Positions 7,069 to 21,197 of a stretch of 64,000 nucleotides of DNA are shown one piece after another. Source of the DNA: a phage; the NCBI GenBank assembly GCA_021525805.1, contig GCA_021525805.1_3940.1; one strand, given 5' to 3'. The notes below the pieces were generated by a model. The model was not told where the DNA came from and did not search any database. It saw nothing but the letters and a program-made list of their open reading frames with translations. Numbering within the stretch: position 1 is the first letter of the stretch; the number at the start of each line of letters is the position of its first letter. The position numbers and the translations under genes are program-made.

Positions 7069-15066
<7,998 letters not shown>

Positions 15067-15068
15067 TA

Positions 15069-16235
15069 ATGGCAGTAGGTGAAATTCAAATTAGTGCCTT
15101 GCCTCAAGCAGCCTTACCAATTGACCTTAGTGATATCTTCCATCTTAAGCAGGGTATTGAGGATAAGAGATGTACTCTTGAGCAACTACTTGCTCCACAC
15201 TCAAGCCTAAGAAATAACCCTCATGGTGTTACTAAGACACAAATTGGTTTAGATAACGTTATTAATGCTCTCCAGTTAGTTGCTGAAAATAACTTATCAG
15301 ATATTGTTAATGTAGCTGAGGCAAGAGCAAATCTACAGATTATGTCTTCAGAAGAGGTTAATAATCTTATCCAACAACATATTAATGATAAGAGTAACCC
15401 ACACAATACAACTAAGGCGCAGGTTGGTTTAAGTAATGTCCAGAACTGGACAACATCTAACCTTTATAATGAAGATGCAGATAAGTATGCTACAGCAAGA
15501 GCAGTAAATAACTTGTACAAGGCTGTTCAGGCTTCTTATCCAGTAGGTACTATCCATCTCTCTATGAATCCTGCAAACCCCTCTACATATTTAATTTGTG
15601 GAGGTACTTGGGAGTTAGTTTCAAAAGGAAGAGCACTTGTAGGTTATGATAGTGCTTCTAGGCCAGTTGGTTCAACGTTTGGTTCGCAGACTACTGCACT
15701 GACAGTTAACAACATTCCTGCACATACTCACTCAGTATACGTCACTGGTGGTGGTCACACACATGGTGCAACAATGTCTATTAGTTCCTTTGATTATGGT
15801 ACTAAGACAACATCTAGCTTTGACTATGGAACTAAAACCACTAACACGACTGGTGCTCACACCCACTCAGTGAGTGGCTCAACGAACACAACGGGTGCAC
15901 ATACACATGGTTATATTACTGGTTATCAATCAACAGGTGCATCTGGAGATTGGGACAGGGATGGTCACAGAAATACCGTACAAACGGATAGTGCTGGGAA
16001 TCACTCACACTCAGTAAGTGGTACTGCTGCATCAAATGGTGACCATGCTCACACTTTAAATATTGGTTCACACACCCATGTAATTAATATTGGTTCACAC
16101 ACTCACAGTGGCAGTGTGAGTATTTCAACAACAGAGCACTCACACTCTGGTACAACTGGTTCTACAGGTTCTGGACAAGCATTCAGTATTGAACAACCGT
16201 CCTTTGTCCTGTATGTATGGCAGAGAACAGCTTAA
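15069..16235 (+). CDS. Tail fibre protein (short) with His-rich HxH tip
   Basis: C-terminal HTHS/HTHG/HSHS/HAHT motifs; tip region shares two near-identical DNA blocks with the long fibre gene. Confidence 0.6.
   Translation: MAVGEIQISALPQAALPIDLSDIFHLKQGIEDKRCTLEQLLAPHSSLRNNPHGVTKTQIGLDNVINALQLVAENNLSDIVNVAEARANLQIMSSEEVNNLIQQHINDKSNPHNTTKAQVGLSNVQNWTTSNLYNEDADKYATARAVNNLYKAVQASYPVGTIHLSMNPANPSTYLICGGTWELVSKGRALVGYDSASRPVGSTFGSQTTALTVNNIPAHTHSVYVTGGGHTHGATMSISSFDYGTKTTSSFDYGTKTTNTTGAHTHSVSGSTNTTGAHTHGYITGYQSTGASGDWDRDGHRNTVQTDSAGNHSHSVSGTAASNGDHAHTLNIGSHTHVINIGSHTHSGSVSISTTEHSHSGTTGSTGSGQAFSIEQPSFVLYVWQRTA
15839..16053 (+). repeat. Fibre-tip duplication, copy 1
   Basis: Blocks 15839-15915 and 15948-16053 are near-identical to 18474-18550 and 18583-18688; the ~30 nt between them differs. 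Confidence 0.7.
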
Positions 16236-16245
16236 TTTCTTTACA

Positions 16246-16266
16246 GGGGCTTTATAGCCCCTTTTA
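16246..16266 (+). terminator. Rho-independent terminator between the two fibre genes
   Basis: ggggct-ttat-agcccc then TTTT; preceded by TTTACA as in the early cassettes. Confidence 0.5.
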
Positions 16267-16281
16267 AGAGGAAAATTTATA

Positions 16282-18810
16282 ATGGCAGATTACAAGTTGA
16301 GTGAATTAAACTCAATCGATACAGTTCGTTCAGACGACCTTCTTCATATCAGGGTTAAAAAGAGACCTGAAATGCTTGGTGATGAAGACCGCCGAATGAC
16401 CTATCAAGATTTCTTAGCATCTTTTAAACTAGAAAGGTTTGTTCAGATTGCTGGTAGCACTATGACGGGTGACTTAGGAATTGTTAAGTTACTTTATGGT
16501 GGCAAGGTAGTCTTTGACCCTACAGGCTCTTCTGAGATTACTATGGGGGATGTTTTAAAGACTTTTAAAATTAATGCAAATGGTCTTAAACTAACTATTG
16601 CAGATGCTTCAAGGTCTGCAACTGTTTATCATACTCTTAATAAGCCAAGTCCTAATGAGCTTGGAATGAGAACCAATGAAGAGAACGATGCAAGATATGC
16701 AAGGCTTGCTGTAACAAACACATTCTCTAGAAATCAGCACATTCAAAGTGATGGTAACGCACTTCGCCTTAGAAACCAGATTGCAAATAATGCACAATAC
16801 ATTGAGGGTGTAAACCTAGATGGCTCAGCTAGATGGTGGGTTGGTATTGGTAGCAATGGCGATGATGCAGTAAGCTTGTATAACAACAAATACAACTCAG
16901 CAGTGACTGTTGCAAGCAATATCTCTGTTAATAAGTCTTTAGCAATTACTGGTCAAGTTCAGCCTTCTGACTTCTCTAACTTAGATGCTAGATACTTTAC
17001 TCAGACAGCAGCTAATCAGAGATTTGCGCAGCTAGTTGGTAATAACACCTTCAGTGGTTTAAACACATTCAGTAATAATGTCAATGTGAACTCTGATGGT
17101 GCTGCTATCATTCTAAAAAATAAAACGGTCAATGAGACTCTGTTCATCCTAGCAAAGGACAGTGAAAACAATAATTTGTGGTATATTGGTAAAGGTGATG
17201 TAACCTCTAATATCACAATTTATGATTACAAGGGGGACACTTCCATTAAATTAAACGCGTCTGGTGTAACATTTAGTAAGACTGTCAAAATCACTGGTCA
17301 AGTACAACCTTCTGACTGGACTAACATTGATTCTAGATACATTCCAGCAGCTACTTTGAATAATCTTCCTAAACTTAATGTGTCTAATACTTTCACAAAT
17401 ACACAGACTATTGTTGCTAACAATGAAGGGTTGATTGTTAAGAATTTGACACAAAATCAACCTTTGTATATCCGTGGCGTGGATACTGCGAATGTGTCTA
17501 GGTGGTGGTTAGGTGTAGGTGGCCCAGATTCTACTGATGTATCCTTAAACAACAGTTTCTCTGGGACTCAAATTACTCTTTCAAGGTCATTAATTACGGC
17601 TAACAAGAACTTTGCTATTACTGGTCAAGTTCAACCTTCTGATTGGTCTAACATCGATGAGAGATACTATAACAAATCATCCGCTGATAACCGGTATCTG
17701 AGAGTAAGGAGCACTGGATTCAATACTGGTGGTGCTGGTAAATGGGCTAAGATTGCTACTGTCAGTATGCCGCAAGCCACATCAACAGCGGTGATTGAAC
17801 TTTTTGGGGGGGCTGGATTTAACTTTGGCTCAGTTGACCAAGCCTGTAAAACAGAAATTGTTCTTAGGACAGGGAATGGTGACCCAAAAGGCTTAAATGT
17901 TGTTGCATGGAAAAACTCACCGAATACTGTTGTAAGTCAAATTGGGTATGTTAATACCTCTGGTGATAACTATGACATCTATTGCGCAGTTGGCAACTAT
18001 CAAAACGCTACGACAGCTAGGGTTCAGTCATCATCTAATGCAACAGTACAACTGTTTGAGTTTCCAGAGACATCTGACAACGCCCCATCTGATTATGTTG
18101 CTGGCACAATTGCTTACTATTACACTAGTCTCTTGAAGCCAAGCCCTTCAGATATTGGTGCATACACTAAAGCAGAAACTGACCAGAAGATTGCACAGGC
18201 AGTAAGTGACTCTACAGACCTTAATAAAATCTACCCAGTAGGTATTGTAACGTGGTTTAACAGTAATGTTAACCCTAATACAGCACTGCCTGGTCTAACT
18301 TGGACGTATCTGAACAACGGTGTTGGTAGAACTATCAGAATTGCAGCAGCAAATGGTTCAGATGTTGCTACAACTGGTGGTTCAGATTCTGTGACGTTAG
18401 CTGTTGGGAACTTGCCTTCACACACTCACAGTTTTTCTGCTACCACTTCATCTTTTGACTACGGAACAAAAAACACTAACACGACTGGTGCTCACACCCA
18501 CTCAGTGAGTGGCTCAACGAACACAACGGGTGCACATACACATGGTTATACTACTGGTGCGCAACCAAGTGGTACAAGGGGTGATTGGGACAGGGATGGT
18601 CACAGAAATACCGTACAAACGGATAGTGCTGGGAATCACTCACACTCAGTAAGTGGTACTGCTGCATCAAATGGTGACCATGCTCACAGTGTTGGTATTG
18701 GTGCTCACAGCCATACAGTGAGTGGTAACACTGGAAGTACAGGTTCTGGTTCAGCATTTAGTGTAACTAACCAGTTCTATAAGTTAATGGCTTGGGTGAG
18801 AACTGCTTAA
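16282..18810 (+). CDS. Tail fibre protein (long) with three internal repeats and His-rich HxH tip
   Basis: 842 aa; three ITGQVQPSDW(S/T)N(I/L)D.RY repeats; C-terminal HxH tip duplicated from/with short fibre. Confidence 0.65.
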   Translation: MADYKLSELNSIDTVRSDDLLHIRVKKRPEMLGDEDRRMTYQDFLASFKLERFVQIAGSTMTGDLGIVKLLYGGKVVFDPTGSSEITMGDVLKTFKINANGLKLTIADASRSATVYHTLNKPSPNELGMRTNEENDARYARLAVTNTFSRNQHIQSDGNALRLRNQIANNAQYIEGVNLDGSARWWVGIGSNGDDAVSLYNNKYNSAVTVASNISVNKSLAITGQVQPSDFSNLDARYFTQTAANQRFAQLVGNNTFSGLNTFSNNVNVNSDGAAIILKNKTVNETLFILAKDSENNNLWYIGKGDVTSNITIYDYKGDTSIKLNASGVTFSKTVKITGQVQPSDWTNIDSRYIPAATLNNLPKLNVSNTFTNTQTIVANNEGLIVKNLTQNQPLYIRGVDTANVSRWWLGVGGPDSTDVSLNNSFSGTQITLSRSLITANKNFAITGQVQPSDWSNIDERYYNKSSADNRYLRVRSTGFNTGGAGKWAKIATVSMPQATSTAVIELFGGAGFNFGSVDQACKTEIVLRTGNGDPKGLNVVAWKNSPNTVVSQIGYVNTSGDNYDIYCAVGNYQNATTARVQSSSNATVQLFEFPETSDNAPSDYVAGTIAYYYTSLLKPSPSDIGAYTKAETDQKIAQAVSDSTDLNKIYPVGIVTWFNSNVNPNTALPGLTWTYLNNGVGRTIRIAAANGSDVATTGGSDSVTLAVGNLPSHTHSFSATTSSFDYGTKNTNTTGAHTHSVSGSTNTTGAHTHGYTTGAQPSGTRGDWDRDGHRNTVQTDSAGNHSHSVSGTAASNGDHAHSVGIGAHSHTVSGNTGSTGSGSAFSVTNQFYKLMAWVRTA
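18474..18688 (+). repeat. Fibre-tip duplication, copy 2
   Basis: See copy 1. Confidence 0.7.
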
Positions 18811-18889
18811 TCCCTTATTGACTGATTGTTAAGATGGTGTTAATATTCTTTATGGGTATTCTCACCATCTTGGCTGATGAGGTGATTAA

Positions 18890-19084
18890 ATGCCTACAAT
18901 CCTAGCAATTCTTCTAAAAAATCTAGGTAGCTTCTTCTGGAAACTCATTTTATCCCTTCTAAGTGAATACATGATTGAGAAAGTGTTCTTTAGGCTTGCA
19001 AGATACCTTGCGAGTAAAACAGACACACCTATTGATGATGAGTTCGTAGATAACTTAGAAAAAGCTTTTAAGGGGGAGAAATAA
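18890..19084 (+). CDS. Small membrane protein (holin-like or fibre-associated; uncertain)
   Basis: 64 aa with hydrophobic N-terminus; sits after fibre genes. Confidence 0.3.
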   Translation: MPTILAILLKNLGSFFWKLILSLLSEYMIEKVFFRLARYLASKTDTPIDDEFVDNLEKAFKGEK

Positions 19085-19456
19085 ATGAAGTGGCTAGAGG
19101 AAGCTTTTAAAAATAATATTGGTGCAATTGTAGTTGGTATTTTTAGTGTTATTGGGATGTATACCACGATGCAAGTTTCAAGTGGTAAACAAGAAGTGTC
19201 TGTCACAACAAAGTTACAGCAGCTAGATAATTATTCCAAAAGTAACTATTCAGCTATTCGTGATTTACAGTCTGACATGAGGCTGCTTCAGCTAGGGATG
19301 GAGAACCAGAAAGTCCAGTTAGAGAATGTTAAGGGTGAAAACGCAAAACTTACCAAAACTCTTGATAAATTCTCTGACAGTGTGAATAATCTGGCTCAAT
19401 CAGTATCAGCCCTCCAAGCTATTACTGAGAAGAACACAAAGAATACTGAAAAATAA
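19085..19456 (+). CDS. Membrane-anchored coiled-coil protein
   Basis: N-terminal TM segment (IGAIVVGIFSVIGMY) then Q/L-rich coiled coil; followed by bidirectional terminator. Confidence 0.3.
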   Translation: MKWLEEAFKNNIGAIVVGIFSVIGMYTTMQVSSGKQEVSVTTKLQQLDNYSKSNYSAIRDLQSDMRLLQLGMENQKVQLENVKGENAKLTKTLDKFSDSVNNLAQSVSALQAITEKNTKNTEK

Positions 19457-19462
19457 AATTTT

Positions 19463-19495
19463 AAGGCTCCCGTCAAAAGGAGCCTTTTTTGTTTT
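19463..19495. terminator. Bidirectional terminator at convergent junction
   Basis: ggctcc-cgtcaaaa-ggagcc followed by TTTTTTGTTTT on +, A/T-rich on -; lies between the + strand structural module and the - strand thyA. Confidence 0.6.
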
Positions 19496-20393
19496 ATTTA
19501 CCTACTGACAAAGGTGCTTCAATCTTTCCTGCATGTTGGTAGTTGTTAATGCCACCAATAAAATCACTTGCAGTAAGATGTTTAAGGTCACTTAGAGTGT
19601 TAAGCTGTACACCAATCTCAAAAGTAGGTGCATGGAACTCTTCATTATTCATCAGTTCATAAACCTGCTTCATATGGTTCTGATAAATCTGAGTATCTCC
19701 AAAGACACCTATCAAGTATCGTGGAGTGTATCCAGTCATCTTGCAAAGAACTTCCAGAATAAAACCATAAGATGCAATATTAAACGGAAGTCCTAAAAAG
19801 GTGTCTACTGAACGCTGATACCATTGCAAGTCAACTTCACCCTCATTGGTGATATAAATCTGAAACATAACATGGCAAGGCGCTAAAGCCATTGAGTTAG
19901 CTGCAATATCTGCTGCGTTCCAAGCATTAACAAGCATGTATCGGTCTGTGATATCACCCTTCATTTTTGTTACTAGAGTCTCTAACTGGTCTACAACACA
20001 ACCATTATGACCTTCAAAGTTTCTCCACTGAACTCCGTAGATTCTCCCACCTGCATCCTCTAACCAATCTTGTTCAGAAGAATAATTAGAGCTTAACCAG
20101 CGTTTAAAATCATCTGACCAGATTGTCCAACGTTCTCCGTCATTTTCACCCCAAGTACGATAACGGAGTTCACCAAGCTTATTCTCACCGTTCAGGAACC
20201 ATAAAGCTTCCCCAATAACTTGCCGTGTAAACACCTGTTTAGATGTTAAGAGAGGGAAACCAGTTCGCATATCAAAACGAAACTGAGGTGGAGCAAATGC
20301 AGAGATAACATCTCCAGTTCGTGTAGTACGCAGTTCACCAACGGATAAAACATGGTTCAGGATATTTTTGTAACTTGAATCTGCTTGTGACAT
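19494..20393 (-). CDS. thyA: Thymidylate synthase
   Basis: 299 aa; catalytic-site context ALAPCHVMFQIY (P-C-H) and typical ThyA length. Confidence 0.85.
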   Translation of the reverse strand: MSQADSSYKNILNHVLSVGELRTTRTGDVISAFAPPQFRFDMRTGFPLLTSKQVFTRQVIGEALWFLNGENKLGELRYRTWGENDGERWTIWSDDFKRWLSSNYSSEQDWLEDAGGRIYGVQWRNFEGHNGCVVDQLETLVTKMKGDITDRYMLVNAWNAADIAANSMALAPCHVMFQIYITNEGEVDLQWYQRSVDTFLGLPFNIASYGFILEVLCKMTGYTPRYLIGVFGDTQIYQNHMKQVYELMNNEEFHAPTFEIGVQLNTLSDLKHLTASDFIGGINNYQHAGKIEAPLSVGK

Positions 20394-20394
20394 A

Positions 20395-20940
20395 TCAAAA
20401 GTGTCCTTTTACTTGTGGAACATAAATTTCAAAAGTTGCTTTACCATCCTCTGATGGTTTTGACTGTACCTTTGTAAACACACGGTTATCATACAGCTTC
20501 TCAAAGAAGTTTTCAAAAGGTAAATGCACAGTGGCCTCTTCAGTAACTTTATGGAAAACAGTATGGAACACCACACTAGCATACGGTAAAGCATTGACAA
20601 GGATACCTGCACCACCAATTACAAAGACATCTTCATCAATAGAGCTATCAAGATACTTCAAAAATGCTCCAAATGACTCTTTACTGGCTTTAGCATACAT
20701 TACATCATCTTTGCCAAAGTCTATGCCTAAGTATGGTACAGAATTTGTTAAGACGAGGTTTGCACGTTCTGGTAAAGGCTTACACCCCAGAGTCTTGAAA
20801 GTCTCATTACCCATCACTACTAAGTTATTTTTAGTGAGTCTCTTAAACTCTTGCATGTCCTGTTTATGTCGAGGCCACGGCATACCAGTTGGAGTACCAA
20901 ACTCCCCATTTTCACCACTTGCAAAGATTAATTTAATCAT
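20395..20940 (-). CDS. folA: Dihydrofolate reductase
   Basis: 181 aa; GMPW and VVMGNETFKTLG motifs; adjacent to thyA. Confidence 0.8.
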   Translation of the reverse strand: MIKLIFASGENGEFGTPTGMPWPRHKQDMQEFKRLTKNNLVVMGNETFKTLGCKPLPERANLVLTNSVPYLGIDFGKDDVMYAKASKESFGAFLKYLDSSIDEDVFVIGGAGILVNALPYASVVFHTVFHKVTEEATVHLPFENFFEKLYDNRVFTKVQSKPSEDGKATFEIYVPQVKGHF

Positions 20941-21197
20941 TTTGTAAATCCTTTCTTAATGAACCAGTTGACGACACTCTTCACAACTTTACTACGATGG
21001 TAGATAAAATGTGGAGATGGTTGGTATGAACCATAAGCCCAGAAAGCGATAATTTCATTACACCCTGTGCATCGGGTACTTTCTTCAGCAATATGACCGT
21101 TGGCTATTTCACTTACCTCGCCTTGTAAGTCTGTACACCCACAATGTGGACATCGGATAGGTGTTCCATCAGACTCATAGCAGTGTTCAATTTTCAT
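20937..21197 (-). CDS. Small zinc-ribbon protein
   Basis: CPHCGC ... CTGC cysteine pairs. Confidence 0.4.
   Translation of the reverse strand: MKIEHCYESDGTPIRCPHCGCTDLQGEVSEIANGHIAEESTRCTGCNEIIAFWAYGSYQPSPHFIYHRSKVVKSVVNWFIKKGFTK

Follow-up and report, generated by a model that had tools for sequence, protein, structure and literature searches.

The two adjacent tail fibre genes of a phage, carried on a 64,000 nt stretch of DNA (contig GCA_021525805.1_3940.1 of GenBank assembly GCA_021525805.1; the window), contain closely similar copies of a 261 nt sequence that would encode the distal end of each fibre tip. Within this repeat two blocks are identical between the genes, and the 32 nt between them, which encode the putative apex of the tip, are not. 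The identity of the flanking blocks is very probably the result of recent and recurrent gene conversion between the paralogues, with the sparing of an apex that, by analogy with phage T4, would contact the receptor. The phage can be assigned by sequence to Felixounavirus (Felix O1-like myophages), because its fibre locus matches 240 phage records, nearly all of them Felix O1-like phages of Escherichia and Salmonella, and because a 24-kb stretch of its replication module has approximately 95% identity to many Felixounavirus genomes.

The two copies identified with a repeat finder (Table 1) have 91% identity over 261 nt, are in frame within adjacent genes on the + strand and lie 2.6 kb apart. 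By direct count, block 1 is identical at 77/77 nt and block 2 at 106/106 nt, with 20/32 nt identical (12 mismatches) in the middle segment; the blocks are the only exact runs of at least 12 nt at this offset. A preliminary description of this DNA had reported two almost identical blocks separated by approximately 30 nt, and extreme C-termini that differ. The blocks are in fact exact and the interval is 32 nt, while the divergence of the C-termini is borne out by alignment, the identity between the genes dropping again toward the stop codons. Upstream of the repeat, codon-aware alignment gives 33–62% nt identity and 27–60% third-codon identity, so the 100% identity of the blocks is above that of the rest of the genes. 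Third-codon identity is likewise 100% inside both blocks, versus 40–50% just upstream, where the peptide SSFDYGTK is the same in both genes and its codons differ. When 12 mismatches were placed at random in 215 nt, none of 2,000,000 trials confined them within 32 nt. The identity of the flanks is therefore neither chance nor simple protein conservation. A recent duplication of the whole gene was rejected, since nt identity over the remainder of the two genes does not exceed 50–60% and each gene has orthologues across the Ounavirinae.

The fibre genes were compared with those of 29 IMG/VR Felixounavirus genomes, five GenBank phages chosen for the same head type (mio, A132, JH2, JLBYU28 and HK3) and the metagenomic contigs L038 and L039, L-numbers being used for the related genomes and contigs compared. 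The head of the window fibres is carried by eight genomes, in six of which it is present in both fibres. The differences between the paralogues of these six, given as block 1/apex/block 2, are 0/12/0 in the window, 1/12/6 in L038, 5/12/7 in mio, 8/15/20 in L039, 9/14/25 in JH2 and 10/13/24 in HK3. Orthologues differ at 4–16 nt in block 1 and 2–20 nt in block 2, with means of 4.8–10.6 in the blocks, where the window paralogues show 0. With the lowest divergence found elsewhere (6.6%, in mio), 183 nt free of differences would arise with a probability of at most 4e-6. Private variants are common to both window copies at 15893 and 15899 in block 1 and at 15959 and 16041 in block 2. The close relative L038 has its own homogenised flanks, with 102 and approximately 86 identical nt and 0–1 differences in the region before block 1 and in block 1 itself, and its pair of copies differs concordantly from the window pair at several block 1 sites. 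Because the two pairs differ in this concordant way, concerted evolution has occurred in the lineage of the window.

Positions at which the short-fibre and long-fibre clades of the other phages differ were used as diagnostic sites. Along the window long fibre these run as one site of the short-fibre type, 11 of the long-fibre type in the apex, five of the short-fibre type and then 35 of the long-fibre type. At the five sites (equivalent to 15956–15988), the long fibres of mio, JH2 and HK3 have the other state. Block 2 of the window long fibre is 0–4 nt from the short fibres of the window, mio and A132, and 8–13 nt from the other long fibres. This suggests conversion from the short fibre to the long fibre on the ascending side of the tip; for block 1 the direction cannot be told. 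Gene conversion is thus argued for by the identical silent sites, the private variants shared by both copies and the short-fibre states in the flank of the long fibre, and the mosaic structure noted in the preliminary description is recombinational rather than plain conservation. Non-reciprocal homologous recombination between paralogues 2.6 kb apart would have generated the two identical blocks, and its recurrence in the lineage would have led to concerted evolution, the 32 nt centre having kept two old fibre-specific alleles.

Table 1. Coordinates of the tail fibre genes, the repeat and the tip features in the window.
Feature	Coordinates	Strand	Remarks
Short tail fibre gene	15069..16235	+	388 aa open reading frame; predicted orthologue of Bas63 gp26 / Sf14 gp52
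Long tail fibre gene	16282..18810	+	842 aa open reading frame; predicted orthologue of Bas63 gp27 / Sf14 gp53
Repeat copy, short fibre	15819..16079	+	Residues 251-337; two descending HxH rungs, head, two to three ascending rungs
Repeat copy, long fibre	18454..18714	+	Residues 725-811
Block 1, short-fibre copy (TNTTGAHTHSVSGSTNTTGAHTHGY)	15839..15915	+	Descending needle strand, two His boxes
Block 1, long-fibre copy	18474..18550	+	Equals 15839-15915
Apex, short-fibre allele	15916..15947	+	Y-I-T-G-Y-Q-S-T-G-A-S-G, residues 282-293
Apex, long-fibre allele	18551..18582	+	Y-T-T-G-A-Q-P-S-G-T-R-G, residues 756-767
Block 2, short-fibre copy (DWDRDGHRNTVQTDSAGNHSHSVSGTAASNGDHAH)	15948..16053	+	Remainder of head and ascending strand, two His boxes
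Block 2, long-fibre copy	18583..18688	+	Short-fibre-type states; probable recipient of short-to-long conversion
Short-fibre-specific return strand and C-terminus	16054..16235	+	Includes 27-nt tandem duplication 16059-16078 / 16086-16105, adding a rung
Long-fibre-specific return strand and C-terminus	18689..18810	+	All 35 diagnostic sites of long-fibre type
Short-fibre needle	15723..16145	+	9 HxH: descending 15723, 15756, 15858, 15900; ascending 16002, 16044, 16071, 16098, 16137
Long-fibre needle	18421..18714	+	6 HxH: descending 18421, 18493, 18535; ascending 18637, 18679, 18706
Short-fibre collar (T4 gp10 C-domain-like)	15528..15722	+	Pfam Gp10_C match from residue 154; Foldseek 2fkk, probability 0.99
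Long-fibre collar	18223..18420	+	Weak Pfam Gp10_C, residues 648-769, below curated cut-off; alignment to short fibre

Both window fibres end in what sequence similarity identifies as a T4 gp37-type tip, with a collar, an HxH needle and a head. The tip of gp37, the receptor-binding end of the T4 long tail fibre, has a structure (PDB 2XGF) that is reportedly the work of Bartual et al. in 2010. In phmmer comparisons with 2XGF, the short fibre matches with an E value of 4.3e-26 (residues 146–355 against chain positions 18–223) and the long fibre with 1.1e-18 (residues 712–822 against 105–219). The collar domains of the two fibres have only 13–47% aa identity. The HxH motifs quoted in the preliminary description are present, with nine in the short fibre and six in the long fibre. 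The name His boxes for such motifs in gp37 is said to come from the work of Tetart et al. (1996, 1998). The available text of the Bas63 and Sf14 papers (PMC12609058, PMC11821841) reports collar, HxH needle and head in both Bas63 fibres by cryo-electron microscopy, with the chain doubling back at the head, and a similar fibre architecture in Sf14 with divergence concentrated at the distal tip. The collar-needle-head architecture of these fibres is thus already known from these two phages.

On this model the chain would leave the collar, run down the needle, turn in a small head and run back up the needle, which in the trimer would then be six-stranded, as in the Bas63 orthologues. Since the chain doubles back, the extreme C-termini would lie near the collar and the distal tip would be the middle of the repeat, rather than the C-terminus as had first been supposed. 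The 261 nt repeat would then correspond to the distal end, with the last two rungs down (AHTHS, AHTHG), the head and the first two rungs back (NHSHS, DHAH), and a third ascending rung at its divergent 3' end. As the chain turns at the head, the identical blocks would encode the last rungs of the needle together with the flanks of the head, and the variable 32 nt the apex. The HxH motifs of the T4 gp37 tip bind iron (T4 papers), and by analogy with T4 and Bas63 those on both strands of the window needles would hold metal ions along the axis of the homotrimer, putatively Fe(II) in octahedral coordination by six His per rung; the proposal of a T4-like metal-binding tip is consistent with the homology of both tips to 2XGF. 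Across 59 homologues there is no variation in the HxH residues or in several of the glycines. An AlphaFold2 (AF2) monomer of the short-fibre tip, built from a 59-sequence alignment, is mediocre, with a predicted local distance difference test (pLDDT) score of 70.7. In it short strands flank a low-confidence turn at residues 285–295, the only stretch below pLDDT 50, which corresponds to the apex. A Foldseek search of this tip model against PDB gave no match at E <= 0.001 and no needle match; only the collar was recovered (T4 gp10 C-domain), and the needle hairpin drew meaningless hairpins of pore toxins.

The short fibre has two small in-gene tandem duplications, at 15783–15836 (TTSSFDYGTK twice) and 16059–16105 (NIGSHTH twice, with a 27-nt period and 95% identity). 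These add length or rungs to its needle, bringing it to nine HxH motifs against six in the long fibre. The duplications are visible with the repeat finder, although Tandem Repeats Finder reported no repeats in 15000–18900.

Of the 12 nucleotide differences in the apex, 11 fall in six nonsynonymous codons and one is synonymous. The six residues that differ between the short and long fibres are I/T, Y/A, S/P, T/S, A/T and S/R, within short-fibre positions 283–292. In the phmmer alignment, Y282–G293 of the short fibre (YITGYQSTGASG) pairs with Y932–G943 of T4 gp37 (YIEAWNGTGVGG), and the six differing residues align with T4 positions 933, 936, 938, 939, 941 and 942. The T4 numbering is taken to be right because the letters at 934, 936, 938, 939, 941, 943, 949, 953, 955 and 964 agree with the residue names of the T4 papers. 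According to these, T939, located at the head's top, is required for lipopolysaccharide (LPS) binding, G938V changes the host range, the lateral-surface substitutions V941E and G943S eliminate OmpC-dependent adsorption, and W936 and G938 are the tip residues least tolerant of mutation. The variable 32 nt would therefore encode the apex, which in T4 is the receptor-contacting surface, and a role in receptor contact is likely by analogy. The idea that this is a specificity segment, put forward in the preliminary description, is in keeping with its alignment to the T4 head apex and host-range residues; the segment itself was never found swapped.

The apex is nearly invariant within each fibre class, while the flanks drift. 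Its short-fibre DNA is identical in the window, mio, A132, L038 and L039, and its long-fibre DNA in the window, mio and HK3, with JH2 differing by 1 nt. Within a fibre class most orthologues are 0–2 nt apart, with a maximum of approximately 5 for one long-fibre allele, and up to 9 nt differ between the two short-fibre clades. In 6/6 genomes carrying this head in both fibres the apex alleles are strictly fibre-specific, with 12–15 paralogue differences in each. A Mu-like prophage has a fibre with the peptide of the long-fibre apex and head (GYTTGAQPSGTRGDWDSDG.RNTVQT), changed at two residues, although only 106/165 nt are identical. This prophage fibre (protein P0120, L041:3123-3971, Logan contig ERR930250_368) has homologues of Mu gp45–48 upstream and a Caudo_TAP assembly gene downstream. 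The nonsynonymous differences, the near-invariance within each fibre class and the recurrence in a Mu-like prophage suggest that the apex is an old module under purifying selection. Selection is most likely the reason for its sparing, as recombinants whose two fibres carried a single apex type would be left with one specificity instead of two and would be removed. The 12 mismatches in 32 nt may make a mechanical contribution by hindering heteroduplex formation, and selection and mismatch density are not separable here. It is conceivable, and is proposed tentatively, that selection favours a pair of fibres with a common, interchangeable distal scaffold, each recognising its own receptor epitope by virtue of just six residues.

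Several points weigh against gene conversion with a spared, receptor-contacting apex. The direction of conversion depends on only six diagnostic sites and small clades, and two flanking tracts are indistinguishable from a single long tract into which a short apex patch of the long-fibre type was later put back. There are indels in the alignment of the head with T4, and the phmmer gaps are placed approximately 2 residues apart between the paralogues. The AF2 model is too weak to address exposure of the apex, which is argued from homology and the cryo-electron microscopy of orthologues, and selection on the apex is itself deduced from sequence. Sparing is also not obligatory, since a second head family is common to both fibres and in L014, which carries it, the whole head is part of a stretch of 113 nt that is identical between the two fibres.

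The converse arrangement would have the blocks act as homology arms, the long-fibre tip being a copy of the short-fibre tip into which an apex patch was swapped, for example from a co-infecting phage. The apex and flanks do have different histories, and the window long-fibre apex equals that of mio and HK3, with flanks that match the short fibre of the window itself. There is also precedent in the gp38 adhesins of T-even phages, the glycine-rich motif and hypervariable segment design of which, in the available text of PMC3157838, places short hypervariable segments between highly conserved motifs, with exchanges occurring within or near the motifs. However, none of the eight genomes with this head (0/8) has the apex in the wrong fibre or a combination of flanks that requires a patch. 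L038, in which the flanks are identical and the apex different with its own private variants, fits repeated conversion of the flanks better. A patch swap is therefore considered unlikely, and with it the proposal of the preliminary description that the repeat is a scaffold for swapping a short segment: the apex stays with its fibre, the flanks are what has been homogenised in the window, and between phages whole heads move. Nor is the repeat a standing, designed scaffold, as the near-identity is specific to the lineage, with 0 differences in 183 nt in the window versus 34 in JH2 and HK3.

The size of the unit that moves between phages also argues against a patch of 32 nt. Between 'FDYGTK..TGxHxH' and 'HxHxVGIGAHxHTV', at least 12 unrelated head sequences of 31–67 residues are found in 37 genomes; the needle peptide is highly conserved in all fibres, and head types reassort independently in the short and long fibres. 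In five phage pairs with similar long fibres, identity is 80–100%, then 20–50% over approximately 90–210 nt, then 96–100% to the stop codon. The unit exchanged thus appears from these alignments to be the whole head plus the neighbouring rungs, approximately 90–210 nt, and not the 32 nt apex, at the edges of which breakpoints between related phages had been anticipated. A132, the closest overall relative of the window locus, has a different long-fibre head, common to JLBYU28, and the short fibres of these two phages are in different clades despite the common long-fibre head. In vB_EcoM_AYO145A (KR014248; L002:7720-7960), the cassette of long-fibre head and needle has 90% nt identity with T4 gene 37 across 230 nt, which looks like cross-family exchange between a Felixounavirus and a Tequatrovirus. 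A T4-type head similar to that of AYO145A is also present in L005.

Exact inter-fibre matches of at least 60 nt are found only in the window, L014 (113 nt), L038 (102 nt), A132 (66 nt) and mio (65 nt); the entries for L002, L005 and L026 were ignored in this comparison because their open reading frame (ORF) boundaries overlapped the short-fibre gene. In most genomes the only exact inter-fibre matches are 14–27-mers encoding His boxes. In the window, L014, L038 and mio, the ends of the longest paralogue matches coincide with His-box codons or lie only a few nt from them, and in A132 the match stops just before one, with breakpoint positions resolved no finer than the spacing of informative sites. 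Across the genus, conserved His-box coding sequence would let whole heads be exchanged between phages.

The isolates carrying the head type of the window come from E. coli, save one UNVERIFIED record, which is a correlation with host only. Listed under MG065664 as 'Campylobacter phage A132' (L034, UNVERIFIED), one record is an Ounavirinae genome with a fibre locus 90% identical to that of the window, and its host label is doubtful. The long fibres of L007, L008, L010, L020, L023 and L026 have a much larger head, with 67 residues between the flanking HxH motifs and only three HxH motifs after the last FDYG, which suggests a different, bulkier distal domain on a shorter needle. Two IMG/VR genomes (L008:5723-8093 and L015:5718-8061) have the long-fibre gene as two separate ORFs, the break being due to a frameshift, a stop codon or a sequencing error. 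Proteins P0065, P0084, P0091 and P0102 from E. coli assemblies have gp37/Stf-type tips fused to unrelated N-terminal parts, for example DUF1441 or ClpP-like by precomputed Pfam labels; these fusions are probably prophage remnants or gene-calling artefacts.

The remaining explanations of the flank identity fare worse than a patch swap. An assembly artefact, through repeat collapse or a chimeric consensus, is very improbable. Although repeats within 2.6 kb can confuse short-read assemblers, a typical read is longer than either block (77 and 106 nt), the segment between them has retained its 12 mismatches, and the same is seen, with their own variants, in independent assemblies (L038, L014) and isolate genomes (mio, A132). 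Extreme structural constraint on the HxH rungs, without any recombination, would agree with the invariant motif residues and the conserved needle peptide. It is contradicted by silent positions that are 100% identical in the window only (and partly in L038), by the same peptide being encoded with 4–16 and 2–26 nt differences in orthologues and in the paralogues of other genomes, and by the divergent codons of SSFDYGTK upstream, and it can be given almost no weight. A nucleotide-level functional element in both genes, such as an RNA structure or a regulatory site, would likewise fit perfect identity that includes silent sites; it is just as implausible, since orthologues vary freely at these silent sites, most genomes are without long paralogue matches, and neither covariation nor conservation of such an element is seen in the genus. 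An antisense ORF was rejected, the only minus-strand ORF (18551–18757) having no counterpart at the short-fibre copy.

Programmed diversification is the least credible of all. A diversity-generating retroelement (DGR), with a template repeat and a variable repeat at the 3' end of a receptor-binding gene, is superficially suggested by two near-identical repeats of approximately 100–250 nt with differences concentrated at the receptor-binding end. In DGR (that of Bordetella phage BPP-1 Mtd) and in the Mu G and P1 C systems, as here, the receptor-binding end of a fibre is varied using repeated sequence. The mismatches are not adenine-specific, however, with only 3/12 at adenines in the short-fibre copy or 2/12 in the long-fibre copy; both copies are in-frame parts of complete, conserved and expressed structural genes, and the two apex alleles, instead of varying, are fixed among genomes. 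No reverse transcriptase is among the features listed for the approximately 95% identical genomes, the window itself not having been scanned gene by gene. An invertible segment of the Mu G or P1 C type was rejected, because the two copies share one strand and orientation, as direct repeats; 12000–21000 contains no long inverted repeat, the best being 31 nt at 74%.

The identification of both genes as tail fibres is in agreement with Pfam and PHROG profiles. The short fibre matches PHROG 2097 (tail fibre, E 5e-139) and Pfam Gp10_C (E 5e-17), with Phage_fiber above the cut-off, and its orthologues in relatives carry a tail fibre annotation. The long fibre matches PHROG 4277 over its full length and has three gp37_trimer repeats (E 6e-70), with Phage_fiber again above the cut-off. 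Its shaft contains three diverged copies (68–74%) of an 88-nt core at 16929–17016, 17274–17361 and 17601–17688, spaced by 345 and 327 nt and corresponding to the three gp37_trimer domains. The products of the genes upstream of the fibres, 489 and 285 aa long, match the baseplate wedge proteins of Bas63 in size. Because these sizes match and the order is the same, the window genes can be regarded, from sequence and position, as orthologues of Bas63 gp26 (short fibre) and gp27 (long fibre), the two fibres of the baseplate. An ORF at 14764–15066 (100 aa, PHROG 4141, unknown function) precedes the short fibre at the position of the Bas63 fibre-platform gene. After the long fibre, the ORFs 18890–19084 and 19085–19456 match only PHROGs of unknown function, with no match to the TAP/gp38 family; one of the two small ORFs 3' of the long fibre is annotated as a holin in relatives. 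No dedicated fibre chaperone gene of the gp38 or Tfa type adjoining the window fibre genes is evident with Pfam or PHROG. Likewise, no chaperone homologue is reported in the available text on Sf14 (PMC12609058, PMC11821841).

The window tips share with T4 gp37 the order of collar, needle, head and return strand, HxH motifs on both strands, and recognisable 'SSFDYGTK...GxHxH' and 'GNHSH...VGIGAHxHTV' sequences, and their apex aligns with the T4 residues that set LPS and OmpC recognition. They differ in that the head is approximately 4 residues shorter and unrelated in sequence apart from Y, T/S-G and G, in having nine and six HxH motifs where T4 has seven, and in their C-termini (…YVWQRTA and …MAWVRTA, compared with …NYIVRLA in T4). 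Unlike T4, and also unlike lambda-type fibres, there is no gp38 or tail-fibre-assembly gene downstream, and the tip is present on two different fibres of one phage. Bas63 gp26 (short tail fibre) and gp27 (long tail fibre) and Sf14 gp52 and gp53 are encoded by orthologous genes in the same order after the wedge genes and have gp37-like tips on both fibres. The available text of these papers (PMC12609058, PMC11821841) is, however, concerned with architecture only, with no mention found of DNA identity between tips, conversion or apex alleles.

As in the T-even adhesins, where exchange follows conserved motifs, exact paralogue matches in the window group lie nearly always on His-box codons and swapped heads are bounded by His boxes. 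In the T-even phages, however, the exchanges are between phages or are duplications within one gene, whereas in the window the exchange is between paralogous fibres of the same genome, with the flanks homogenised and the apex spared. The general features of concerted evolution of tandem paralogues are present: paralogues in one genome resemble each other more than they do orthologues in other genomes, silent sites have been homogenised, both copies have the same derived variants and the tracts end sharply. Unlike the general case, the tracts are very short (approximately 80–110 nt), and between them lies a 32-nt island that has withstood homogenisation. The locus extends known principles and is no new kind of system, exchange working like the T-even conserved-motif model. 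In the portions of the literature on Felixounavirus fibre paralogues that were available, no report was found of gene conversion, tip DNA identity or fibre-specific apex alleles. Concerted evolution of the distal needle in the two fibres of one Felixounavirus, together with a fibre-specific 12-residue apex, is accordingly a modest extension of what has been described.

Felix O1-like phages are used for the typing and biocontrol of Salmonella and E. coli. Their host recognition is described in the literature as elusive. From the results, specificity in both fibres is probably determined within an apex of 12 residues on a common scaffold, with six residues as candidate determinants. If two fibres do read different epitopes through these six residues, they would be a natural minimal specificity determinant for LPS-core recognition by Felix O1-like phages, and one portable enough to work in the fibre of a Mu-like prophage. 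A six-residue swap should then retarget either fibre, and loss of one allele should narrow the host range. The homology needed for exchange, whether inside one genome, among members of the genus or with T4-like and Mu-like phages, would be supplied by the His boxes that encode the needle, which thus point to concrete, small chimeras for host-range engineering. The two fibre tips also provide a clean, small-scale example of concerted evolution interrupted by an island that is most likely maintained by selection.

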